The position numbers were made by a program, and so were the translations under genes. Below, one piece after another: positions 332-32,559 of a DNA stretch of 34,477 bases; position 1 is the stretch's first letter; every line of letters begins with the position of its first letter. This stretch comes from Escherichia coli (GTDB taxonomy: Bacteria; Pseudomonadota; Gammaproteobacteria; Enterobacterales; Enterobacteriaceae), in assembly GCF_003334815.1 (NCBI RefSeq), contig NZ_QOWO01000039.1; one strand, given 5' to 3'. The notes below the pieces were generated by a model. It made no database searches, had not been told where the DNA came from, and saw only the letters and a program-made list of their open reading frames with translations.

Positions 332-1027
332 TTAGCAGTCATCAATAATCAAGTAAGTTGCATGTACTGGTCCATGCACACCAACAACTTTGATCAGTTC
401 TATATCTGCAGTAGAACTTGGGCCTCCAATCAGATTGATACAGGAAGGCAGTCGTTGTCCTTCCTGAGCCATTTCATGAAGTTTTTGCGCAAGCTGAGCC
501 ACTCGGGGGAGAATAGTGCTTTTGCGTAAAACAAATAATGATGCTTCAGGCAAAAGGCTTACTGAGCGCCCACGTTCTGGTGCGGAGAATAAGACAATGC
601 CTCCTGATTCTGTCAGCCCATACTCAGCGAAAACGACACCAGTTTTTGCCTTTTCAGCAAGATGGATATTTTCATCGCCCTTCTCCGGATCCCACAGAGC
701 AGCGTCCATTTCTTTTTGTAGCAATGGCGTAATCCCTGTATCGACCAGTCGTTGATCGTTGCTGATAATGACTGGCCCGGAACCGAACTTCCAACAGATG
801 TCTAAGGCTGTTGATGGTGCGTTCTCAGGCGACACCAGAACACACTCGGCAAGCATCACTTCCGAGGCAAATTTAATAAACGCCTCACAGCGTTGGTCTG
901 ATGTCAACTCTGTTAAACGTGTCGTAGCCAGCGTATTTACAGGCTCCGGCATTGCTTCGGGAATATGTCTTACTGGTCTGCCAAGCTTTCTGGCGATCGC
1001 AACGAGAAATTCCTCTCTGTTTTCCAT
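332..1027 (-). CDS. lutC: Lactate utilisation protein C (LutC/YkgG family)
   Basis: 231-aa ORF, last gene of a tightly spaced lutA-lutB-lutC arrangement; conserved C-terminal block ...AEYGLTESGG..LFS..ERGRS.SLLPE.SLF.LRKSTI.PR... resembles E. coli YkgG as recalled from memory. Confidence 0.85.
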   Translation of the reverse strand: MENREEFLVAIARKLGRPVRHIPEAMPEPVNTLATTRLTELTSDQRCEAFIKFASEVMLAECVLVSPENAPSTALDICWKFGSGPVIISNDQRLVDTGITPLLQKEMDAALWDPEKGDENIHLAEKAKTGVVFAEYGLTESGGIVLFSAPERGRSVSLLPEASLFVLRKSTILPRVAQLAQKLHEMAQEGQRLPSCINLIGGPSSTADIELIKVVGVHGPVHATYLIIDDC

Positions 1028-1030
1028 AAA

Positions 1031-2446
1031 TTACCCCTCCTTCTTATGTCGCTTGAACCAACTACGGAAGCTTTCTCCATCAGGTGATGGCAGGTCTCTG
1101 GCTTCAGTCCATTCTTTTATCGCTCCAACACTAATCGGCGTTTTTCCTTTCCTGATGAACAGACGGGCTGTTTTGGCCCCAGCAACCATACCTACCTTCC
1201 ACAACGCCGGATGGCTGTTTATGTAATTGAATGCTCTGGTTATACGGCGTTCCGTTAATGGTGTGATTTCAGACTCTGCCATAACCTGGCGATGTTTTTG
1301 TATTAGCGTTGCCAGAGGTATTTTTACAGGACATACCCCATTGCAGGCAGTGCACAATGAGCAGGCATAGGGTAAATCCTTAAAGTCTTCATATCCACCA
1401 AGCAATGGGGAAATAACCGCACCGATTGGCCCCGGGTAGATTGAACCATAACCATGCCCACCAATCTGACGATAAGCCGGGCAGGTATTAATGCAGGCAC
1501 CGCAGCGGATACATCGCAATACATCGCTGAATTCTGAGCCGAGAATCTCTGAACGCCCATTGTCAACAATAACGAGATGGAACTCTTCCGGACCATCAAC
1601 ATGTCCTTCTTCTCTGGGGCCTGTAAGCCAGGTGTTATAACCTGTCAGTCTCGCCCCGACAGCACTCCTTGCAAGCATGGTAATCAGAACATCCACCTCC
1701 TGGAATGTCGGAGCAATACGCTCCATACCCATAACAGCAATATGTGTTTTAGGTAATGTGGTGCACATCCGTGCGTTGCCTTCGTTTGTAACAAGGCAGA
1801 CTGACCCTGTTTCTGCAACGGCAAAGTTACACCCCGTTACGCCAACTTCAGCACTCAGAAAATCTTGTCTGATTTTCTCACGGATGAACAATGTCATTGC
1901 TTCTGGAGTTTCAGGCCCGTCATACCCCAGATGTTCATGTAAAACTCTGCGGATTTGATGGCGATCTTTATGTATTGCCGGCACAACCACATGCGATGGT
2001 GGCTCATGTGCTAGCTGAAGAATATATTCCCCAAGGTCCGTTTCAATCACGGGTATCCCGGCTTTCTGAAGAACGGCATTCATGCCAATTTCCTCAGTCA
2101 CCATTGATTTGGATTTAACAACCTTCCTGGCGTTTTTTTCTTTCGCCACCTTCAGTATGTAACTGGTTGCATCCTCTCTGGTACGGGCAAAATATACATG
2201 CCCGCCATTCGCAGTAACCTTTTCGGACAATTGATACAAATAAGCATCAAGATTTTCCAGAACATGCCGACGAATCTGTTCAGCTCGTGAACGCCATTCC
2301 TCCCAGTGTCCCAGTTCATCAACCATTTTCTGTCGATTAGTCCCTATGCGCTCCTGTGCGTTAGCCACAGCTTTTCGCATGATCGGGTCCTGAATCTGAA
2401 TACGGATACGCTCTTTAAACCTGATATCACTTGTTTTCAAAGACAT
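1031..2446 (-). CDS. lutB: Lactate utilisation protein B (LutB/YkgF family), 4Fe-4S iron-sulfur protein
   Basis: 471-aa ORF with ferredoxin-type cysteine motifs CIRCGACINTCP and CSLCTACNGVCP; 3-bp gap to lutC and 10-bp gap to lutA. Confidence 0.9.
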   Translation of the reverse strand: MSLKTSDIRFKERIRIQIQDPIMRKAVANAQERIGTNRQKMVDELGHWEEWRSRAEQIRRHVLENLDAYLYQLSEKVTANGGHVYFARTREDATSYILKVAKEKNARKVVKSKSMVTEEIGMNAVLQKAGIPVIETDLGEYILQLAHEPPSHVVVPAIHKDRHQIRRVLHEHLGYDGPETPEAMTLFIREKIRQDFLSAEVGVTGCNFAVAETGSVCLVTNEGNARMCTTLPKTHIAVMGMERIAPTFQEVDVLITMLARSAVGARLTGYNTWLTGPREEGHVDGPEEFHLVIVDNGRSEILGSEFSDVLRCIRCGACINTCPAYRQIGGHGYGSIYPGPIGAVISPLLGGYEDFKDLPYACSLCTACNGVCPVKIPLATLIQKHRQVMAESEITPLTERRITRAFNYINSHPALWKVGMVAGAKTARLFIRKGKTPISVGAIKEWTEARDLPSPDGESFRSWFKRHKKEG

Positions 2447-2456
2447 TCTGTTTACC

Positions 2457-3176
2457 TCATCTGTGCATCAGGACTTCAGCAATATGCATCACTTTTACAG
2501 GATGCCCTTCACGGTTAAGCCGACCGCCGATGTTTAGCAGGCAACTGGCGTCAGCCCCGATAAGAAAATCAGGTTTAACATCCATAATATGCCCGACTTT
2601 CTCTTTCACCATTTCACCAGAGATCTCCGCCATTTTTACAGAGAATGTGCCGCCAAACCCGCAGCACGTTTCCTGAGCGTGAAACGGCAGTAGCTCAAGC
2701 CCCTGTACATTCTCAAGTAGCAAAAGCGGCTCTCTGGTTACACCCAGCTTACGGGAAAGGCTGCAGGAGGGATGGTACACAGCGCGACCATTGAGTTTTG
2801 CCCCAACATCTGTGATGCCAAGATGATTTACTATAAATGATGTCAAATCATGCAGGCGTTCAGCCACTTTTTCAGCTCGTGCCGCCCACTCAGGTTCTTC
2901 ACTGAGATAGCGAGCGTAATTTTTTATCGTGTAAGTGCATGACCCGGCAGGAGATACTACCGGCCAGTCATTCTCTTCCAGCGAAGATATGAGATTTTTC
3001 ATGCCCGGGATGGCATCACGAACATAACCGCCATTTATCGCTGGCTGACCACAACATCCCTGCTTTTCGGGGAAATGGACATTGCAACCCAATTGCTCCA
3101 GTAACAGCACACTCTTTTGTGCCATCCGGGATTTAAACGCATCACCAATGCAGGTGACGAAAAAGTTAACATTCAC
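2457..3176 (-). CDS. lutA: Lactate utilisation protein A (LutA/YkgE family), cysteine-rich Fe-S oxidoreductase subunit
   Basis: 239-aa ORF; N-terminus MNVNFFVTCIGD... and CCG-type cysteine motifs (GCCGQP, CCGFGG) typical of YkgE/LutA; first of the three lut genes. Confidence 0.9.
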   Translation of the reverse strand: MNVNFFVTCIGDAFKSRMAQKSVLLLEQLGCNVHFPEKQGCCGQPAINGGYVRDAIPGMKNLISSLEENDWPVVSPAGSCTYTIKNYARYLSEEPEWAARAEKVAERLHDLTSFIVNHLGITDVGAKLNGRAVYHPSCSLSRKLGVTREPLLLLENVQGLELLPFHAQETCCGFGGTFSVKMAEISGEMVKEKVGHIMDVKPDFLIGADASCLLNIGGRLNREGHPVKVMHIAEVLMHR

Positions 3177-3225
3177 AGAAATTTCTCCTGTTGATTAATA
3201 TTCCACGTCCTTTTGTTGTTTTTTC

Positions 3226-4782
3226 TCAGGCCATGAACAGGTGGTAGACAAGGCCTACTTTCAGTCCAAGAATAACAATATAAGCAAAGCAGTACTTCAG
3301 TGTTCCTGACATGATTACGCTGCCCTGACCATCCATACGGGTGGCTGAAACAGCGATAGCAATACTCTGAGGAGAAATCATTTTGCCGCCTGTTGCGCCA
3401 GATGTATTTGCGGCAGCCAGCCAGAGCGGGTCCACATGCAATTTTTCAGCCGCAGTAGTCTGCAATTTACCAAACAGAATGTTGGAGTTTGTGTCACTAC
3501 CAGTAACAAATGTACCAAGAGCGCCGATAACCGGAGCAATGAAGAGGTAGGCCCCACCAGTCAGATCCACAAGGCTCTGTGCCAGAGTGCCAATCAACCC
3601 ACAGACATCCATTACCGTTGCCATGGCAACAATCGCAGAAATGGCAATAATGGAGTTTTTAAGTTGTTTTACCGTGCTGACAAATACGTTTAACAGGCAT
3701 GACAGGGATGCTTTCTGTATCAAGCCGCCAATAACACTGGCAATGATAATCAGAACACCGGGGGTTGCGATCCATTCAATTTTCATCGACAGATTGCTGC
3801 CGTTACTCAGAGAGAAGGTGAGTGACGAGGCAATCTGAGACACTGCACTTTTTATCGTCGGGAACAGTGGAGAGCAAAGCAGAATGAACAGAAAGATCAG
3901 AATGTAGATTGAGCACGCACGTAACAACGCCCCACGAGAGTATGAAAGTGCGCTGGCGCTATCTGCTGAACTCTCAATAAGAAATTCAGGTTCTGTTTTT
4001 TCTTTACGGTTTTTTGCCATAAAGACTATAACGATCAGACTGACAAGACTTCCTGCGAAAGCCGGGAGCTCTGCGCCAAGATTAACAGCCACCAGATACT
4101 GAGGTATCAATGTGCTAATACCGCACATCAGGGTAATTAACCCTACGCCTCGTATAGCTTTCATACCTCCACCGATAATCGTGACGATAACGAAGGGGAG
4201 CAGAATGTTGAACAGTGCCAGCTGAAGAATAATCGTCCCGCTGAGTGTGGTTACAGGTAAATTAACTTGTTCAGCAAGCACGGAGACAGGTATACCGACT
4301 GCCCCAAACGCTGTAGGGACTGTATTAGCAACCAGTGATGCAATCGCTGCTTTTAGTGGGTTAAAGCCCAGTGCAATGAGTATACCTATGGGGATTGCTA
4401 CCGCTGTACCGTATCCGGCGGCCGCCTCAAGAAATCCGCCAAAACACCATGAGATAAGAAGAACCTGGATGCGTTTATCGTCACTAACGCTCGCCAGAAC
4501 ATTTCTCAGAATATCCATGCTTTTTGTCGCATTCATCAGGTTATAGCTGTAAATGGCAGCAAGGATGACAATCACAATCGGCCACAAACCTTTGATTGCG
4601 CCGTATACCACAGCAGATCCCATATCCATAACTGGCGTCTGCCAGAAAACCCCTCCAAGGATTAGCGTGAGCAGGAGAGTGCTAAGCACAGAATAGTGTA
4701 TGGGCATTTTGACTTTCAGAATCAAAATGATCATCGCCAGAAGGGGGGTAAGTCCCAGTAAAAAAAGCAGGTAATCGTGCAT
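3226..4782 (-). CDS. lctP: L-lactate permease (LctP family), polytopic inner-membrane transporter
   Basis: 518-aa highly hydrophobic ORF with multiple predicted transmembrane segments, directly upstream of lutABC on the same strand (49-bp gap); RBS aaggaa before the ATG. Confidence 0.8.
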   Translation of the reverse strand: MHDYLLFLLGLTPLLAMIILILKVKMPIHYSVLSTLLLTLILGGVFWQTPVMDMGSAVVYGAIKGLWPIVIVILAAIYSYNLMNATKSMDILRNVLASVSDDKRIQVLLISWCFGGFLEAAAGYGTAVAIPIGILIALGFNPLKAAIASLVANTVPTAFGAVGIPVSVLAEQVNLPVTTLSGTIILQLALFNILLPFVIVTIIGGGMKAIRGVGLITLMCGISTLIPQYLVAVNLGAELPAFAGSLVSLIVIVFMAKNRKEKTEPEFLIESSADSASALSYSRGALLRACSIYILIFLFILLCSPLFPTIKSAVSQIASSLTFSLSNGSNLSMKIEWIATPGVLIIIASVIGGLIQKASLSCLLNVFVSTVKQLKNSIIAISAIVAMATVMDVCGLIGTLAQSLVDLTGGAYLFIAPVIGALGTFVTGSDTNSNILFGKLQTTAAEKLHVDPLWLAAANTSGATGGKMISPQSIAIAVSATRMDGQGSVIMSGTLKYCFAYIVILGLKVGLVYHLFMA

Positions 4783-5360
4783 GTCATTTCCTTAAACGAA
4801 AACAAAGTCAGCATCATTACTGTGGTTATTGATAGTTTCCACGCCCTGTCGGACGAGAGTGTTTATTTATCAGGGGGAGAATGAGTATCGTCTCCAAAAT
4901 TGGGATGTTCTTATAAAGTATTTTTTAGTTTAAAAAATATAGCTGAATCGTTTCATTGTTATCTTCCATGAATAAATGTTATGAAATAATACTTTTTGGG
5001 TATTTTTTGTTTATGCGTGTAACACTTGTGTGCTATCCCGATATAACCTTAAGACTGGAGTTGCAACTGGAGCTCGTCGAAAATCAACGCCCAAATCCTC
5101 GACAAATGGAGAAAGAGAATGAGCAATATCACCAGGAATAGGTAAGCGTCAACGGGGATGAAATACGGGGATTACCGGAGTCAGAGCGTCTTGCCGTCAG
5201 GCAGCAGCGAAGCAAAGTGTTACTGACGTCACTGCATGAATGGATGGTGGAGAAGAATGGTACGCTGTCGAAAAAATGTAAGCGTCGTCTGAGTACCGTC
5301 TGGTCCCGAATCCAGGATCCTGTAACTTAAGCACCCACTTATTTTGCAGGTGGACACCTC

Positions 5361-5744
5361 ATGCGCGCTAAAGAAAGACTTCCCCGGAAACACTATTCCC
5401 CTGAATTCAAAATGGAACTGGTCAGGCTGGCTCTTGAAGAAGAAGGCAGTATTGCCGCACTGGCCCGGAAACATGACGTCAATGATAACCTGCTCTTTAA
5501 ATGGATAAGGCTCTGGCAGCGTGAAGGGCGGGTCTGTCGGCCCCGAAAAAACTCATCGTCGCTTCCTGCCCTGATACCCGTGCAGCTTCAGGCGGGCTCT
5601 TCTCTCCCAACCTTCGAACTACCATCCTGCTCTCCTCCCGCTACCTGCCACATAAAATGTCGGGGAGGAGAAATAACACTGACTCATCCCTCTGCTGAAC
5701 TCATGAGCACTGTCCTGCGCGAACTGATGCGGGGGCCTGTATGA
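5361..5744 (+). CDS. tnpA: IS66-family accessory protein OrfA (TnpA)
   Basis: 127-aa ORF, first in the IS66-type three-gene arrangement; its stop overlaps the orfB start (ATGA). Confidence 0.8.
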   Translation: MRAKERLPRKHYSPEFKMELVRLALEEEGSIAALARKHDVNDNLLFKWIRLWQREGRVCRPRKNSSSLPALIPVQLQAGSSLPTFELPSCSPPATCHIKCRGGEITLTHPSAELMSTVLRELMRGPV

Positions 5745-6088
5745 TAAATCTTCCCGCAGGCACAAAAATCTGGCTGGTTGCCGGTATCACCGATATGCGC
5801 AACGGCTTCAATGGCCTCGCCGCAAAGGTGCAGACCGCGCTGAAAGATGACCCGATGTCCGGCCACGTCTTCATCTTCCGGGGACGCAGCGGCAGTCAGG
5901 TAAAACTGCTCTGGTCCACCGGCGATGGTCTGTGCCTGCTGACAAAGCGACTAGAACGTGGTCGCTTCGCCTGGCCCTCAGCCCGCGATGGCAAAGTGTT
6001 CCTGACGCCGGCGCAACTGGCGATGCTGATGGAAGGTATCGACTGGCGACAGCCAAAGCGGTTACTGACATCCCTGACCATGTTGTAG
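5741..6088 (+). CDS. tnpB: IS66-family accessory protein OrfB (TnpB)
   Basis: 115-aa ORF translationally coupled to orfA; precedes the transposase gene. Confidence 0.8.
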   Translation: MINLPAGTKIWLVAGITDMRNGFNGLAAKVQTALKDDPMSGHVFIFRGRSGSQVKLLWSTGDGLCLLTKRLERGRFAWPSARDGKVFLTPAQLAMLMEGIDWRQPKRLLTSLTML

Positions 6089-9761: not shown

Positions 9762-9783
9762 AGCCGGCTCATTTGAACCGGCT
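9762..9783 (-). terminator. Putative terminator hairpin just after the excA stop (agccgg-N10-ccggct, then a U-rich tract on the minus strand)
   Basis: 6-bp GC stem about 20 nt past the minus-strand excA stop, followed on that strand by uuuguucauu. Confidence 0.4.
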
Positions 9784-9802: not shown

Positions 9803-10465
9803 TTAAAATACTTCGGCTACAGGCATGCCTGCAATCTGCTCCCACTCCTTACGCTTTTCCTGAATCAGGCGAGGAAAGTCGACAGGGTAATCATATCCTC
9901 GACTTGCCATTGCGTGCATGGTGTTTGATGCTGTTTCTGGATGAGCACACCATGATGGAACAGGAACCATTGGCAGATTGATGTATTTCGTATGAATTTC
10001 CAGTTTTTTGTCGTCTGTTACAGTACGAGTGAAATTATGAATGTCAAAACCGATAACATCCATAATGTTGCCTGGATAGATACGGACATACAACATTGTG
10101 CCATTTTTAAGGTCAATGCCGAAATAAGCTCCCTGGGTTAAAGATAATCCCTCATACCCCTTCTCTGGAGAGTAGAAGCCTGACTCTTTTATTGTTTGTA
10201 CAACTTTTCTTATTTTTTCTCTCCTTGTTTTTGCACGTGAGTACATCCATATGCCTGGCGCAAGTAATAAGAACCAACTACCGAAAGTGACAACATAATC
10301 TTCGACCTTATTTCCGAAATAACGATCAGAACATAGCATTTCGGTAAAGCCTAATGCGCAGAACAGAAAAAAAGGTATTCCAAGAAAGAAATAAGCTTTT
10401 CTTAATACATAATAAAATAGCCACCAGGTTGGAAATCTGTCTGTTGTTTCTTTTTTAGCTTTCAT
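9803..10465 (-). CDS. excA: Inner-membrane protein at the ExcA (entry-exclusion) position of IncI-type transfer regions
   Basis: 220-aa ORF with two N-terminal hydrophobic segments, last gene of the minus-strand tra block directly after the DotA-like gene; assignment is positional. Confidence 0.45.
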
Positions 10466-23338: not shown

Positions 23339-24031
23339 TCAGGAGTTCGGTCCGGCGTTACGGGAGATCATCTGCCGGATTTCCATACCGGATGGTTTCA
23401 GTCTGGGGTCAACACGCTGGATGGTGATTTCGAAAACAAAAGACTGTTCTGGCTTGCTGGTTGTCTGGCCGACCAGACGCATACGGACAGGATACTGGAA
23501 TGTCCAGAACCATACGCCGTCGGACATTTGTCCCTGTCGTACCAGAACGCCAGCACCTGTCGTGGCGGTCAGATTCATCTTCTCTTTCTTGATCGTCTCC
23601 AGAATGTTAGATGCCTGTAATGCATTCACATATCCGACAAAACCTTCGTCAGAAAAACGCGGAGACAGGGAGGAGATCTGTGAACGATAGTGCACAAAAT
23701 CCAGGTTGAATGCGGTCGCCAGTGCCTGGCTGCCAAAGGCCATTGCATCATTCTGACTCCATGCTGGCTGACTTGTTGGTGCCAGCCTGACCAGACGACC
23801 ATTGTCTGTAGCGAAATATTCGCGCTCCACATTCGTTGAGTGCCAGTACTGAATGGCGTTACCAGTAATACTGATAAGAAGACATGTGCCCGTACATAAA
23901 AGCGCTTTTATCAGCGCAGGGACATTATTTGCCCGCTGTTCTGACTGCTTCATAGCCCTGATTGTGCTCTTCAGTATTTCCGGGTCAGGTGCCGGATGTG
24001 ATGGCGAGGATGGCTCGGTATTTTCGGTCAT
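23339..24031 (-). CDS. traM: DotI/IcmL-like membrane protein, TraM-type
   Basis: 230-aa ORF with one transmembrane segment (LLCTGTCLLISITGNAIQYW); positional. Confidence 0.5.
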   Translation of the reverse strand: MTENTEPSSPSHPAPDPEILKSTIRAMKQSEQRANNVPALIKALLCTGTCLLISITGNAIQYWHSTNVEREYFATDNGRLVRLAPTSQPAWSQNDAMAFGSQALATAFNLDFVHYRSQISSLSPRFSDEGFVGYVNALQASNILETIKKEKMNLTATTGAGVLVRQGQMSDGVWFWTFQYPVRMRLVGQTTSKPEQSFVFEITIQRVDPRLKPSGMEIRQMISRNAGPNS

Positions 24032-24375
24032 AGGTTGTAGTCCTTCCAGGGATCAATATTCCCCGGCAGCTTTTCATTCACCTTGTCCACGACCGCGTCG
24101 CAGACCTGGTTTTCCAGCTGCGACAGAATGTCGTCAAGGCTGGGGAACTGGGGGAGGTTTATGCTGATTTTTTTGATTCGTGACAGACAGGACTGCAGGG
24201 ATGAGGAAACATCGTTTTCACGTTGTGACCATGCATCCGCAGCTGCACGTGCTCGCTCATATCCTGTATTACTACCGGCCTGTGCCGCGCTACCCGCACG
24301 ACAGGTTGCAGCACTTGCCGTGGATGAAATCAGGATAAGGCCGAGCACGGCAACCAGAGACTTATGCATGTTCAT
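24028..24375 (-). CDS. Small secreted protein at the TraL position
   Basis: 115-aa ORF with signal peptide MNMHKSLVAVLGLILISSTASA; overlaps traM by 4 nt. Confidence 0.5.
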   Translation of the reverse strand: MNMHKSLVAVLGLILISSTASAATCRAGSAAQAGSNTGYERARAAADAWSQRENDVSSSLQSCLSRIKKISINLPQFPSLDDILSQLENQVCDAVVDKVNEKLPGNIDPWKDYNL

Positions 24376-24392: not shown

Positions 24393-27300
24393 TCATCGGC
24401 CGGGGCTGTGGGAGAGATCCTGATGCAGAGTTTTTTCCTGCCTGTCCTCCGGCTTTTGGCTGTTGGACCACTGCTGCCATGACTGCTCGAAGCCCAGGTT
24501 CCGGTACAACGCATCAGGTTGTTTTTCCGGCGTGTAGACAGCAGCAAAAAGCGGTTCTTCCCGGGTTTTCAGATGAAACTGCATAAGCTCCGGTGCAGGG
24601 CGATTCGTGCTGTCAGCATCGTGGTTTACCGCTTCACCATAACCTGCAAAGCGTAAACCTTTGTCGGTCAGCGCATTGATAACCAGCTGACTGTTGTCGG
24701 CTGATGGGGTGGCCAGTGCCGGATACAATGTGCCGTTCAGCCGGACCACACCCTGCAGATGTTCATCGGCACTCTGGACAAGTAGCAGGTTGAGTTCACG
24801 CGTATCCTTATCCACTGATCCCAGAACAGGTGTCAGCTTGTCAGGGGCTGCGCTGGTTATTTCTGTTACCTGATTTGCGTTCTGTGGCGCGGAGACCGGA
24901 TGTCGGTCTTCACCGATAAACAGATGTGAGCCGACGTTTTCTGGCATACGTAACGCTTTCATCTCTTCGGGCCACCCCTGGCTGATTTGCGCAGCCACTT
25001 TCATAAAGGTTTCGACCGGAATCGCCTGAATACGCTGACCTTTATCCGGATTATCATGTGATACCGAGATCCCGTTGGTAACTGACTCCATGGACCACTT
25101 ATTCCGGAAACGTGCTTTTTGCTCTCCCGGGAGGATGAATTGTTCGCGGTTCTGAAGTGTCAGTGTCACCACGTCACCTTTCTGATGGTTTTTGACCAGA
25201 CTTTCCAGTTGTTCCCCCCAGTAGAGTTTGCTGCCACTGCGGTTTTTAAGCTCAACAAAGAAACTCTCTCCTTTGCCGGGTGCATATTCAGCACGACCAA
25301 AATTGTGCAGTACGGCAGTCACGCTCTCTCCCGGGCGAAGTTTTCCTGGTGGTTCTTCGTCTGGTGCCACATCTGCCGTTTTGCCTGGTTCAGCCGGTGA
25401 TGGTGCAGAGGCGGTGCTGACGGTTGATGCTTCAGGGGCTACTGGGGACGCCGGGGATTGTGTGGCTTCTTTTTCCTGAACGGGGTCAGGGACAGCCGGT
25501 TGTTCTGGGGTATTCCGGTTAAGTTCCGGTGTTGGCTGATGGGTGACAACTGCATCCTTACTGACAGCCATTTCCTTGCGTAATTTTTCTAGTTCAGCCC
25601 GTTGATCTGGCAATTTCATCCGGACATCGATGTTGTGCTCGATAATCAACTGCATTGCTTTTTGCTTAAAGGCATCACTGCCCGTCAGCTCTATGACGCC
25701 CCCATAAAATTTGGTGGCCACAGCAAGTGCGGCCAGAACGCTGCGATCGTCATTGCTGGCACCGTTGACCATTTCCAGCCGGTTTACCCGGTCAATGAAG
25801 GCAGGTTTGCCATCCAGTTTGTACAGGACGGTTCTGTCTGCTCGTTTTTCCCAGTCAAGCTCTTTAAGAATTTCGTCCATGTTGAGCGATATCGGTGCAT
25901 CAGAACGTTCCGGGGCGTAGACAATACTGTCAGGTATCGGTGGAGTCGTCGTGGTTTCCGCTGAGGGCGTGGGATCACTGTTCTCATGCGCCTGTGAATC
26001 CGTTTTTTTACGCGTAAAAAGGCCACGCGCTTTGTCGAGAAACGATGAAGTATTATCAGAAGGTGATGTGCTCTGAACAGGTTGCTGCGGAGTGGGTTCA
26101 TCCCGGACAGCCGGTTCTATAGTGGCTGTTGTGGCCTGAAGTTCTGACTCATCTGCCTGAACGGGGCCTGTGTCCGGTTGCGACGGCATATCACTGTTTT
26201 CCTGCAGATGCTCAGGATTTTCATTGTTCATCAGCTCCTGATATGCGCTGTAGTCTTCGTATTCTTCAGGGCCATCTGACTCAGGAAGGAACGGCTCTGG
26301 CTGAAGGGGAATGTCTTCAGTTACATGGCTGACCGCCTCTTCCCGGGGAGTATCCGGGGATATTCCGGTGCTTTGTTTGTCATCAGGCTCCGTCATCACG
26401 GTCATTTCCTCTTTGACTGCATCAGGGGAAGGTGATGGTTCGGCTGATTCATTCATGGTTTCAGATGAGGGGCTGTCTTCAGGGGCGGCGGGGGCAGCAG
26501 CAGGGGCCGGTATTTCTGGTGAAGTGCCGGACTCCTGTTGTAACTCGTTTTTTTCCGGTTGTGACAGTTCGGCTTCAAATTCACGCCAGTCTTTATCTGT
26601 GGCCACAGAGACAACTTTTTCCGGAGGTTCCGCCGGATGAGCGGGTTCATCAGGGGCAGACGCCGTTGTACTTTCCGGGGATGCCGGTGATTCTGCAGGG
26701 GAGTCCTGAACTACAGAGCTTTCCGTTTGCGCCTGAACGTTATCAGGGTGCCGCTCATCTTTGCCGTTATTTTCAGTGGCGTGACTGGTAAATGACAGTG
26801 TTTCATCAGCAATGTTACTGCTGGAAGCAGTTGGTTGTTCCTGCTGCGTGGCGGACGGCAGAGAAGGTCCCTGGTCATGGCTGTGCCCTGTATCGGGTGA
26901 TGTTTCAGGATATTCTGTCGGAGTCATGGTTTTTTCCTCAGTGTGGACCGGTGTAAAAACGAGGTTGCCGATCACCAGTGCCTCCCGGATTTCCGGGGTG
27001 TTACTGTTGGGGGTGGAAACCCCGATATGTTCTAACTGGGCGTTGATGACATGCTGAAAAGCGGCCCGTCCCCGGCTGGCGTCCAGGTCATTGAAATCGG
27101 TCAGTCCCTGCGATTTTTCGGCATCGGTGAACGCAGGAAAGATGACCGATCCTCCTGTCAGTTCTGCGGCTTTTGTTGCACTGACGATACCTTTGTTAAC
27201 CTGGCGTGCATGATCGTTGTCGGCACAGAAGATAAAGGGGCTTTGCTTCCATTTTTGCCGGGCATCTTCGGCCACGGCAATCATGTTGCCCGCATCCACT

Positions 27301-28160
27301 GTCATCAGCACCGGAAGGCCGGTGGCTTCGTGCAGGGAGGCGGCAGTGGCATAGCCCTCGGCAAACAGCACCGGCTGGCCGTTGCGCGGTGTACCCAGCG
27401 CAAACCAGTTACCGGTTTTCTCGGAATCTTTCAGGATGCGGGCATCCTTCCCGCCGGTGACCGGAATGCGCTGATAGGAGCGTATTGCGCCGTTACGGTT
27501 GCGGAAAGGAATAACGAGCTCATTTTTGTCGTTTATTCGCACCCCCGGCGCAGCCTGAATGCCTTTCCGGGTCAGGTATTCATGTGCCGTGGCCTGCGGC
27601 CATTTGTTGACATAGCGGCGGGCATAAGCAGCCTGTCGGTTGTACTGTGCTTTCAGTTCCCGCTCAGCGTCCTCCCTGCGTTGCAGCGAATGCGCTTTCA
27701 GGTGAAGCCTTGCGCGGGGATCTGTCTGCTCTCCGCCGGAGAAGGTCCAGTTGACCGGCGAATCATCCGCGCTGCGATAATCCCTGTACCAGCCGGCAGG
27801 TCTGCCGTCCAGGAAGCCGCGATATGCGCCACTTTTTTGCCCGTTTTTGTCATCGGTGGTCGGAACCCGGTGGATTTTACCGTCCATGGCCGGCAGTTCT
27901 TTCAGAACCAGTCCGGCATTTTCCAGTACCTGGGCAAACTCGGTGACCGGATCACTGCCGTTCATGGAGACTTCCTGCGGTCGGGGCAGCCAGCGGTCCA
28001 GCATGGACAGGTCCGCCCCCGGGCGGGCAAACCAGAGTTTGTGCTCTTTATCCCAGAGGACGGGCGTGTGCCCGTTCATCGGGGGATGTGCTTTTTTGAG
28101 ATCTTCTATTTCATCTGCAGGCACGGCAAGCCAGGTGCGGTAGCGGGATACAGACGGCAT
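24393..28160 (-). CDS. sogL: Sog-like conjugative DNA primase (N-terminal primase/Toprim-like domain, long acidic P/E/S/T-rich linker, large C-terminal domain)
   Basis: Start set at the ATG at 28160 (aggag RBS), giving about 1255 aa; the track ORF extends to a GTG at 28196. About 350 aa of low-complexity acidic linker in the middle. Confidence 0.7.
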   Translation of the reverse strand: MPSVSRYRTWLAVPADEIEDLKKAHPPMNGHTPVLWDKEHKLWFARPGADLSMLDRWLPRPQEVSMNGSDPVTEFAQVLENAGLVLKELPAMDGKIHRVPTTDDKNGQKSGAYRGFLDGRPAGWYRDYRSADDSPVNWTFSGGEQTDPRARLHLKAHSLQRREDAERELKAQYNRQAAYARRYVNKWPQATAHEYLTRKGIQAAPGVRINDKNELVIPFRNRNGAIRSYQRIPVTGGKDARILKDSEKTGNWFALGTPRNGQPVLFAEGYATAASLHEATGLPVLMTVDAGNMIAVAEDARQKWKQSPFIFCADNDHARQVNKGIVSATKAAELTGGSVIFPAFTDAEKSQGLTDFNDLDASRGRAAFQHVINAQLEHIGVSTPNSNTPEIREALVIGNLVFTPVHTEEKTMTPTEYPETSPDTGHSHDQGPSLPSATQQEQPTASSSNIADETLSFTSHATENNGKDERHPDNVQAQTESSVVQDSPAESPASPESTTASAPDEPAHPAEPPEKVVSVATDKDWREFEAELSQPEKNELQQESGTSPEIPAPAAAPAAPEDSPSSETMNESAEPSPSPDAVKEEMTVMTEPDDKQSTGISPDTPREEAVSHVTEDIPLQPEPFLPESDGPEEYEDYSAYQELMNNENPEHLQENSDMPSQPDTGPVQADESELQATTATIEPAVRDEPTPQQPVQSTSPSDNTSSFLDKARGLFTRKKTDSQAHENSDPTPSAETTTTPPIPDSIVYAPERSDAPISLNMDEILKELDWEKRADRTVLYKLDGKPAFIDRVNRLEMVNGASNDDRSVLAALAVATKFYGGVIELTGSDAFKQKAMQLIIEHNIDVRMKLPDQRAELEKLRKEMAVSKDAVVTHQPTPELNRNTPEQPAVPDPVQEKEATQSPASPVAPEASTVSTASAPSPAEPGKTADVAPDEEPPGKLRPGESVTAVLHNFGRAEYAPGKGESFFVELKNRSGSKLYWGEQLESLVKNHQKGDVVTLTLQNREQFILPGEQKARFRNKWSMESVTNGISVSHDNPDKGQRIQAIPVETFMKVAAQISQGWPEEMKALRMPENVGSHLFIGEDRHPVSAPQNANQVTEITSAAPDKLTPVLGSVDKDTRELNLLLVQSADEHLQGVVRLNGTLYPALATPSADNSQLVINALTDKGLRFAGYGEAVNHDADSTNRPAPELMQFHLKTREEPLFAAVYTPEKQPDALYRNLGFEQSWQQWSNSQKPEDRQEKTLHQDLSHSPGR

Positions 28161-28185
28161 GAGTGCTTCTCCTGAAAAAAGACGG

Positions 28186-28215
28186 AAAAAAACCACCGCC
28201 GGAAGCCGGGGGTGG
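28186..28215 (-). terminator. Intrinsic terminator between nuc and sogL (GC-rich 9-10 bp stem, 4-nt loop, U7 tract on the minus strand)
   Basis: Minus-strand RNA ccacccccg-gcuu-ccggcggugg-uuuuuuu, read directly; ends about 25 nt upstream of the sogL start. Confidence 0.6.
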
Positions 28216-28249
28216 CTGGGGGGATAGAAAATCGGGGGAGAAATGTTTG

Positions 28250-28801
28250 TCAGGGTCTCCAGTCTGTACCCTTATTCCAGCGATCCTGCCAGTGTTCAAG
28301 ATATTGTGCGGCTACATCCGGCATATTCTTAAGCACAACGACATTCTCTGAATTCTTGCGTGCAGCAGCACGAGAGAAGTTATAGGAGCCGGTTTCAACC
28401 GTGTTTCCGTCAACAATGATGACTTTGTCGTGATGGATGGGGAAGGCATCTACAGTCCGGAGAGGAATGTCCAGCAGGTTGATATATTTCATCGCTTCCT
28501 GACTTGCCCGGTTCGTATTCCCCTTGTCATCAACAACAATACGGACGTCCACTCCGCGTTTTTTCGCTTTTGCCAGCGCATGCATTACATCCGGGTCGGT
28601 GAAGGAATATGCCATCATCCTGATGGAGCTTTCCGCACTGTTGATTGTGTCAAGCACCAGAGCGGATGCGCTTCCTTCAGGAGAAAAGCCGACCTTCACG
28701 GATGGCGTGTCGATCATTGCAAACGATGGTGTCGTGAACAGTAACGGGCATGCCAGTAGCGATACCCGGAGCAGAGTAACGATAGTTTTTTTACCTGACA
28801 T
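28250..28801 (-). CDS. nuc: Phospholipase-D-superfamily endonuclease (Nuc-like), secreted
   Basis: HKD motif (IHHDKVIIVDGNTVETGSYNFS); signal peptide MSGKKTIVTLLRVSLLACPLLFTTPSFA from the internal ATG at 28801 (ggag RBS); the upstream part of track ORF 28250..29161 is judged non-coding. Confidence 0.75.
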   Translation of the reverse strand: MSGKKTIVTLLRVSLLACPLLFTTPSFAMIDTPSVKVGFSPEGSASALVLDTINSAESSIRMMAYSFTDPDVMHALAKAKKRGVDVRIVVDDKGNTNRASQEAMKYINLLDIPLRTVDAFPIHHDKVIIVDGNTVETGSYNFSRAAARKNSENVVVLKNMPDVAAQYLEHWQDRWNKGTDWRP

Positions 28802-28815
28802 AAAGACTCCAGAAT

Positions 28816-29106
28816 TTAATCGAGGCCAGTCCAGTCTCGTGGTGATTCCGTATGGTGGCGATACCACCATGGACGACCGGAGGCGATGGCCCCTCTCAGA
28901 ATGCTGTAAATGCGAGTACAGATCGTCCTGACAGTCCAGCCTGAACGGTCGAGAATAACGAAAAATAAAATGATGCCGGTGCAAATCCAGAAGGTTGTTT
29001 TGGAGGGAAAGGGGCATATAAACAGATAAATCATGGTGAACGGCAGAGGTACGCCCTGGATGTTGACTGGCGGTGTTGCATATCGCCAGAAACCTTCTCT
29101 TTTCAT
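28816..29106 (-). CDS. Small membrane protein at the TraK position (IcmT-like?)
   Basis: 96-aa hydrophobic ORF whose ATG overlaps the traJ stop (ATGA coupling). Confidence 0.5.
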   Translation of the reverse strand: MKREGFWRYATPPVNIQGVPLPFTMIYLFICPFPSKTTFWICTGIILFFVILDRSGWTVRTICTRIYSILRGAIASGRPWWYRHHTESPRDWTGLD

Positions 29107-31521: not shown

Positions 31522-31915
31522 AATAATTCCTGAGCAGTTAAATCAGAATGGGATATACCGGTGCTCCGGTACAGACAGGATGATGTTTGTTTCCGGCTAT
31601 ACTTGCGTTACCGGAAATAAATGCCAGTGTGGCCAGGTAAATAGCCTCATAGTTTACTGAAGGTGATTATTCCTGATACTGGCTGGTTGATGTGTCGTCA
31701 GACATAAAACGAATATGAGCGTAATCTTTAACGCTCCGCGCCGAATCGATCCATGATGGATGACTCGACGATTTATGAATCGAACGTACCGGCGCTTGTC
31801 CCTGAAACAGTTCCCGGCCCTCGTCCGGATAACCTGCAATTCAGACAGGCACATGTGCCCGTACACTCTTGTATCTTACTGAGTATATCAGAATTTATGT
31901 AAATTCAAATATCCT

Positions 31916-32500: not shown

Positions 32501-32525
32501 GTTATTTAAACTGAATATAAAAATA

Positions 32526-32547
32526 CCCCCGGGTTTAGTGCCGGGGG
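32526..32547 (-). terminator. Intrinsic terminator after the outer-membrane-barrel gene (stem cccccgg/ccggggg, then a U-rich tail on the minus strand)
   Basis: 7-bp GC stem followed on the minus strand by uauuuuuauauu; lies between the 32560 stop and the 32500 start. Confidence 0.55.
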
Positions 32548-32559
32548 CGGGGACAGTAA

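Follow-up and report, generated by a model that had tools for sequence, protein, structure and literature searches.

How the conjugation genes behind an apparently strong intrinsic terminator come to be transcribed is the question raised by the 89-nt gap between nuc and sogL on an Escherichia coli plasmid. The gap lies in the window, by which we mean the whole stretch of DNA that was analyzed (34,477 nt; contig NZ_QOWO01000039.1). A preliminary description of the locus had placed a strong intrinsic terminator about 25 nt ahead of the sogL start codon and had offered two explanations for sogL expression, namely partial read-through acting as attenuator-like control of primase dosage, or a promoter overlapping the hairpin.

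The window represents an IncI1/Iγ plasmid. It matches E. coli plasmid NZ_CP024481.1, whose replicon is IncIγ/K1 and whose transfer system is MPF_I, at 100% identity; ColIb-P9 shows 98% identity to the window. Every transfer gene of the window is carried on the minus strand, in the order traE, traF, traG, a 394-nt gap, traH, traI, traJ, traK, nuc, the 89-nt gap, sogL/S, traL, traM to traY, and excA. The gene names nuc and sogL used in the preliminary description agreed with the PGAP annotation of the 100% identical plasmid, and the predicted SogL length of 1255 aa is the published one (PMC6112013). Behind the nuc–sog hairpin lie 18.4 kb consisting of sog, traL to traY, and excA (about 20 genes), and these tightly packed genes are mostly transfer-essential in pESBL and R64 (PMC4288162). 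At the left end of the window (332-6088), L-lactate permease and lutABC-type lactate-utilisation genes are located beside IS66-family sequences, an unusual cargo for an IncI plasmid. Coordinates of the features are compiled in Table 1.

Table 1. Features of the nuc–sogL region and of the surrounding transfer array, in coordinates of the window
Feature	Position	Strand	Remarks
Second internal terminator-like hairpin, GCCCCCGG-CACTAAAC-CCGGGGGU, then AUUUUUAUAUU	Hairpin 32525-32548; with tract 32548-32519	-	-16.9 kcal/mol; in the 59-nt traF-traG gap
Best upstream candidate σ70 promoter (predicted), TTGAAT-15-TGaTATACT	31882-31908	-	PWM score 11.4, exceeded by only one other minus-strand site; traG-traH gap, 3.7 kb upstream of sog
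traK	28816-29106	-	PGAP annotation of the 100% identical plasmid
nuc	28250-28801	-	Phospholipase-D (PLD)-family EDTA-resistant nuclease, upstream of sogL; PGAP annotation of the 100% identical plasmid
nuc stop codon TGA	28252-28250	-	
nuc–sogL gap	28161-28249	-	89 nt
Spacer from nuc stop codon to hairpin, CAAACATTTCTCCCCCGATTTTCTATCCCCCCAG	28216-28249	-	34 nt, C-rich, G-poor; C-run lengths and one A/G site differ between plasmids
Terminator hairpin, CCACCcCCGG-CUU-CCGGcGGUGG	28193-28215	-	-14.2 kcal/mol
U7 tract, flush with the stem	28186-28192	-	6-8 U in all 18 variants
sogL leader, CCGTCTTTTTTCAGGAGAAGCACTC	28161-28185	-	25 nt; T6 run at 28180-28175; Shine-Dalgarno GGAG at 28172-28169
sogL/sogS primase gene	24393-28160	-	1255 aa; ATG at 28160; matches PGAP
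traL	24028-24375	-	17 nt after sog
excA	9803-10465	-	PGAP annotation of the 100% identical plasmid
Post-excA terminator, GCCGGTTCAAATGAGCCGGC + TTTTGTTC	9763-9782	-	-14.0 kcal/mol; probably where the transfer array ends

On the minus strand, the sequence from the nuc TGA to sogL reads CAAACATTTCTCCCCCGATTTTCTATCCCCCCAG CCACCcCCGG CTT CCGGcGGTGG TTTTTTT CCGTCTTTTTTCAGGAGAAGCACTC ATG, and the succession reported earlier, from the end of nuc through a GC-rich hairpin and a U7 tract to the sogL ribosome-binding site and ATG, was confirmed in every detail. Positions 28215-28206 pair with 28202-28193 through nine Watson-Crick pairs, eight of which are G-C, with one C·C mismatch at 28210/28198 and a CUU loop at 28205-28203. 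The distance from the last U of the tract to the sogL ATG is 25 nt, and the GGAG motif stands 8 nt ahead of this ATG. The hairpin is non-coding, begins 34 nt past the nuc TGA, and is in the sense orientation on the strand shared with all tra genes. Its stem, loop, and U run fall within the ranges that define intrinsic terminators at the sequence level (a G+C-rich stem of about 5-14 bp, a loop of 3-8 nt, and a U run within 0-2 nt of the stem). The U tract is 3' of the stem in the tra-sense direction only; since this site has neither a plus-strand U tract nor a plus-strand gene, a bidirectional terminator and a terminator of an antisense gene were ruled out.

The same anatomy could be read as that of an mRNA processing or stability element, in which endonucleolytic cleavage within the U-rich single-stranded stretch would leave the hairpin to shield the 3' end of the traH-nuc message, with half-lives differing between the two halves of the mRNA. 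A stable hairpin followed by 25 nt of U-rich, unstructured RNA is of the kind favoured by RNase E, and intercistronic stem-loops in such a role are well known in other operons. However, a U7 tract flush with the stem is the signature of intrinsic termination, and a protective 3' hairpin needs none; we regard a processing element as highly unlikely.

Without the U tract, the nuc–sog hairpin had a folding energy of -14.2 kcal/mol, comparable to those of the terminator behind excA (-14.0 kcal/mol) and of the trp attenuator (-12.0 kcal/mol). When 181 nt around the site were folded, the stem pairs each had a probability of about 0.85, and the fold of the 121-nt region had a z score of -2.6 relative to shuffled sequences. 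We estimated the chance expectation by scanning 80 dinucleotide shuffles of the whole 34.5-kb strand for single hairpins of -15 kcal/mol or below followed at once by at least six T in eight positions. The shuffled strands contained 0.54 such sites on average, corresponding to about 0.0014 expected for this 89-nt gap and strand. The real tra-sense strand contained three, a count reached in only one of the 80 shuffles, and the opposite strand contained none. All three are intergenic, being located between traF and traG (32548-32525), between nuc and sog, and behind excA (9782-9763). The anatomy, the folding energy, and the chance estimate thus bear out the claim of a strong intrinsic terminator about 25 nt ahead of the sogL ATG, and the nuc–sog element is best read, on its sequence, as a genuine Rho-independent terminator within a long co-directional transfer array.

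A terminator at this position raises the matter of where transcripts of sog begin. A consensus scan of the minus strand between 26500 and 30000 found no σ70-like promoter. In a PWM scan of 29200-28150, the highest score was 8.7, for a site within traK, and scores from nuc to sogL were at most 7.4, which is at background level: the 99.9th percentile of strand positions is 6.3, and a handful of such scores per kilobase are expected by chance. The 25 nt past the U tract contained no -10-like hexamer. A promoter overlapping the hairpin or located 3' of it was rejected, both scans being at background, and a σ54-type site (TGGCAG-N5-CTGG, about 28291-28276) picked out by eye was rejected for want of the -12 GC. 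Of the two explanations in the preliminary description, the scans therefore left the overlapping promoter without a candidate (at most 7.4, versus 11.4 before traH), and read-through fitted better. Searches for RNA-seq, Term-seq, or promoter mapping of the region returned none in the searchable literature, which misses the 1993 R64 traABCD paper.

The best upstream candidate promoter, in the gap between traG and traH, would give a leader of roughly 360 nt containing a perfect palindrome, TACCGG-AGCA-CCGGTA (31571-31556), and a second CCGGTA. This palindrome is a possible regulatory or loading site.

The hairpin might alternatively mark an operon boundary, ending a traH-nuc unit, with sog to excA transcribed from a non-consensus promoter (for example one dependent on TraC, TraB, or another activator) in the 3' end of nuc or over the hairpin. 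In accordance with this idea, the nuc–sog terminator appears equal in strength to the terminator closing the array behind excA, activator-dependent promoters are often poor in consensus scans, and a weak match, CTGACA-16/18-TTTTCT/TTCTAT, is present just upstream of the hairpin (PWM 5.8-6.5). Insertions in nuc also left transfer unimpaired in a TnSeq study, in which nuc was neutral and hence dispensable for transfer (PMC4288162). In the same TnSeq, however, insertions in the 5' quarter of sogL were tolerated, upstream of the essential sogS and traL-traY (PMC4288162), and the transposon is therefore not strongly polar. We dropped the nuc result both as a polarity test and as promoter evidence, since a non-polar transposon cannot discriminate between the models. 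Furthermore, any start upstream of 28215 would still face the terminator, the 25 nt past the U tract cannot hold a promoter, and the scan scores between traK and sogL stand against 11.4 before traH. Plasmids of the L005 and L011 types keep the hairpin, the leader, and sog under unrelated upstream sequence without nuc; because the sequence upstream of the hairpin differs in such plasmids, a promoter inside nuc is no general solution. We consider an operon boundary at this site to be unlikely.

Because no promoter is recognisable and transcripts starting upstream meet the terminator, transcription through the hairpin would be required for sog and the genes behind it, and because these 18.4 kb of genes are needed, the terminator must be leaky or be made leaky. 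We place slightly better than an even chance on a functional terminator with sog expressed by read-through. According to this model, the most probable origin of the transcripts would be ahead of traH, about 3.7 kb from the nuc–sog junction. They would run through traH, traI, traJ, traK, and nuc, and a share of them would stop within the U7 tract (28192-28186). Polymerases passing this point would then express sogL/sogS and the roughly 20 genes from traL to traY and excA. Such read-through may reflect the terminator's own leakiness, the stem being weakened by the C·C mismatch, or may be raised by TraB. From the features described here we infer termination in vivo, the dependence of sog on read-through, and any role of TraB. 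The Sog proteins are reportedly made and transferred in quantity, which sits uneasily with a strong terminator ahead of their gene.

A known system offers a parallel to this arrangement. In the rpoD/dnaG operon, as outlined in a passage of PMC13374519 that cites Burton et al. 1983, an intrinsic terminator lies directly ahead of the DNA primase gene, and primase and the downstream genes are expressed from read-through. The likeness consists in a terminator inside an operon, right before a primase gene. The genes and sequences, however, are unrelated; DnaG is of very low copy, whereas Sog is reportedly abundant and transferred; and rpoD has internal promoters, none of which is apparent at the nuc–sog junction, where IncI1 adds 18 kb of secretion-system genes behind the primase gene.

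The suggestion that the terminator controls primase dosage was unsupported as stated. All genes from sog to excA are behind the terminator, and attenuation would therefore affect the whole mostly transfer-essential 18.4 kb and not primase alone. Primase control of this kind is also not general, because relatives with orthologous primases have no terminator at that position. We found no mutually exclusive antiterminator structure, as the C-rich upstream spacer cannot pair with the C-rich 5' arm. The sole competitor of the stem was a long-range helix of 5 bp formed with nuc codons (28322-28318). L005-type plasmids, having no nuc, lack this helix, and blocking the 3' arm of the hairpin cost 11.7 kcal/mol. 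No leader peptide was found over the structure; 34 nt separate the nuc stop codon from the stem, a distance at which a terminating ribosome could not mask the hairpin. Between 27900 and 28500, no Rfam family matched at E <=1 except for a spurious snoRNA match. A classical attenuator, which would show an antiterminator structure, a leader peptide, or an Rfam family, was accordingly rejected.

Terminators of similar appearance occur at other junctions of the array. The traF–traG hairpin site ends about 18 nt ahead of the traG ATG (32500) and is identical in ColIb-P9. Its layout is that of the nuc–sog junction, and traG has no obvious Shine-Dalgarno sequence. In ColIb-P9 (L014, NC_002122.1), a perfect intrinsic terminator, CCCGGCCTTCAGGCCGGG followed by T6, is present on the minus strand at 15429-15412, starting 10 nt past the traB stop codon and ahead of traC. 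Its placement resembles the order of prfaH, stem-loop, and virB1 on IncX3 plasmids, and traC is likewise essential.

The gene for TraB (WP_001306770.1) lies outside the window; in the 100% identical plasmid it is among the first genes of the co-directional array, which runs traA-traB-traC-pil-traE…excA. PGAP annotates TraB as a NusG-family protein, and it matches the RfaH profile TIGR01955 with E = 4.5e-11, below the equivalog cut-off, which indicates a paralog. TraB is required for IncI transfer and pil transcription and has been described as an essential positive regulator (PMC5013300, PMC5801416). Plasmid NusG paralogs in general have been proposed as antiterminators of tra operons (PMC7593976).

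The nearest plasmid analogue is the PrfaH system of IncX3, in which a stem-loop termination signal just upstream of the virB1 start limits T4SS expression unless PrfaH is present (PMC11880322). Mutations that break this stem-loop raise expression and abolish the effect of PrfaH, and the same paper names IncI1 TraB as a PrfaH homolog (PMC11880322). Both plasmids encode a NusG/RfaH paralog at the head of their transfer genes. The two cases differ in that the IncX3 system was tested by reporter and mutation, whereas the IncI1 arrangement is predicted from sequence. For PrfaH, the site is a hairpin resembling ops within the 5' UTR of prfaH itself; in IncI1, no canonical ops was found in the window or in the traABC-pil region, and the nuc–sog terminator is many kilobases from traB. 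The very long tra operon of the F plasmid likewise needs a NusG-family elongation factor for distal expression (PMC7593976); F uses host RfaH and canonical ops, chiefly against Rho-dependent polarity, whereas IncI1 has its own paralog and discrete intrinsic terminators.

When we searched for the canonical ops GGCGGTAGnnTG with at most one mismatch, the window contained one match, on the wrong strand (1.6 expected), and the traABC-pil region contained none. The 3' arm of the nuc–sog hairpin reads GGCGGTGG on the non-template strand (28200-28193), matching the RfaH ops core GGCGGTAG at seven of eight positions; by our estimate, chance alone would yield roughly 26 one-mismatch matches of this kind in the window. 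This motif could, speculatively, help to load or retain TraB at the gate, and we treat it only as a lead. RfaH-type factors act mainly on pausing and Rho-dependent termination, which, like the negative search for canonical ops, counts against a role of TraB.

Assisted read-through is plausible because the plasmid encodes TraB and the IncX3 PrfaH system provides a precedent. Granting a functional terminator, a specific dependence of its read-through on TraB may be entertained tentatively, as something that our analysis makes conceivable and still improbable. The pattern of terminators at traB–traC, traF–traG, and nuc–sog fits factor-conditional distal expression. With similar reserve, we suggest that these terminators might serve as checkpoints making distal expression conditional on TraB, among which the nuc–sog terminator would gate the 18-kb secretion core together with Sog; this remains an outside chance that we would not put far from the preceding one.

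The element is of an ordinary kind, found in a slightly awkward place on a well-sequenced plasmid family. IncI1 plasmids rank among the main vehicles of ESBL and AmpC resistance genes, and TraB and TraC have been called essential positive regulators without a mechanism. A terminator before the core of the conjugation machine, combined with an RfaH-like factor, provides a simple experimental handle on TraB. If read-through depends on TraB, the term "positive regulator" could give way to antitermination with a defined mechanism, and the IncX3 PrfaH finding of 2025 would then reach the largest NusG-carrying plasmid group. If read-through is passive, the element is an internal attenuator that sets the ratio of traH-nuc to sog-excA expression, relevant only to quantitative models of transfer cost.

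A 136-nt stretch spanning the gap was found in 1,354 plasmid records; identity was >=99% in 893 of these, and only about 22 showed partial coverage. The element is thus nearly invariant across about 1,350 plasmids, though their overall divergence is low. No description of it turned up in the searchable literature, which misses the older ColIb-P9 and R64 papers, and an earlier mention there is possible.

For comparison of variants, we used 49 loci (11 from plasmids and 38 from metagenome contigs), which comprised 18 distinct sequences. The 25-nt sogL leader was identical in all 11 I1-type plasmid loci, which were fetched without selecting on the leader; a 31-nt leader sequence served as the query for the metagenome loci, which are consequently uninformative on leader conservation. 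Changes among the 49 loci affected the first loop base (C or U), the A/G site of the spacer, the lengths of C runs, and the length of the U tract (6-8). The 3' arm of the hairpin was unchanged except for one GGT duplication. One sublineage, recognisable also from GGAAACCC near the nuc stop codon, has lost an A-U pair of the stem through A28213C in the 5' arm. This substitution occurs alone in L036, together with a deletion in L008 (-9.5 kcal/mol), and together with the GGT duplication of the 3' arm in L010, where the duplication partly restores the stem (-13.3 kcal/mol). Some of the differences in this sublineage may be homopolymer sequencing errors. By inspection, no compensatory pair changes were seen among the 49 loci and 18 variants, whose sequences are too similar to support an argument from covariation. 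The lack of such pairs and the weakened stems of the A28213C sublineage count against the favoured reading.

Outside the I1 lineage, the junction is organized differently. IncK2/Z plasmids lack nuc and have a 63-nt gap between traK and sog; plasmids of the pOP-I type (Enterobacter and Citrobacter) have a 71-nt gap before the primase gene; and in IncL (pOXA-48 type), a Klebsiella MPF_I plasmid, and a Yersinia ruckeri plasmid the gaps between traK and primase are only 15-24 nt. Neither a hairpin nor a U tract was present in these gaps (15-71 nt) of the IncK2/Z, pOP-I-type, IncL/M, Klebsiella, and Yersinia MPF_I plasmids. These lineages were sampled via the plasmid collection; a broad search for primase relatives in genome contigs gave three loci, all of the pOP-I type. 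On this comparison, traK ancestrally abutted the primase gene within one transcription unit, and the strong terminator is specific to the I1 lineage. Because sister lineages do without the element, any regulatory role must be dispensable or lineage-specific.

Traces of recombination were evident at the hairpin itself. In L005- and L011-type plasmids, which keep the hairpin, leader, and sog without nuc, the traH-traK backbone is 68-81% identical to that of the window. A 1.36-kb block corresponding to 28216-26857 is 93-97% identical to the window and located at 3001-4365 of L005 and 1501-2861 of L011. Its left breakpoint coincides with the 5' edge of the hairpin (28216/28211), and its right breakpoint, 26857, falls about 70 nt beyond the start of sogS, a start deduced from the lengths published for SogL and SogS. 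Since the hairpin, the leader, and the primase domain recombine together, the hairpin is linked to sog and not to nuc. From the sequences, the transfer-dispensable primase domain seems to be exchanged as a cassette.

These comparisons bear on whether the terminator is an evolutionary passenger, that is, whether it came with an imported module (either nuc as a cassette or the exchangeable segment comprising hairpin, leader, and primase domain) and has been tolerated as leaky, with no selected regulatory function. Its absence from every other MPF_I lineage examined would be expected of such an element, as would the existence of weaker-stem variants and the movement of the 1.36-kb block from the hairpin to 26857 into a different backbone without nuc. 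IncN plasmids (pKM101/pEcNDM1 type) further resemble IncI1 in carrying a PLD-family nuc homolog (about 67% nucleotide identity) followed by a terminator. There, nuc is the terminal gene, with its own terminator, CCGCCGAAAGGCGG then T8 (U8 in the transcript), right after the stop codon, and the next gene is convergent. Termination is thus unproblematic in IncN, whereas essential genes follow in IncI1. The IncN and IncI1 nuc terminators are, however, not alignable, and homology between them was rejected. The recombinants, moreover, show the hairpin moving with sog and not with nuc. The near-invariance of the element also speaks against a passenger, although the plasmids have diverged little, and two more canonical terminators in similar positions within the array, at traF–traG and traB–traC, suggest a pattern over an accident. 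We judge a passenger origin to be rather unlikely.

The Salmonella lineage L020 (NZ_CP030218.1), with 79% nucleotide identity over traK-nuc, is the remaining relative considered here, and its 280-nt spacer between nuc and sog, non-homologous to that of the window, is again of the sort that an imported module would leave. This spacer (915-1194 of the locus) contains an apparent unannotated ORF of about 41 codons (MFLTDTAPNIDAHCF...), and its last part, just ahead of the Shine-Dalgarno sequence, consists of a branched hairpin with T5 behind it.
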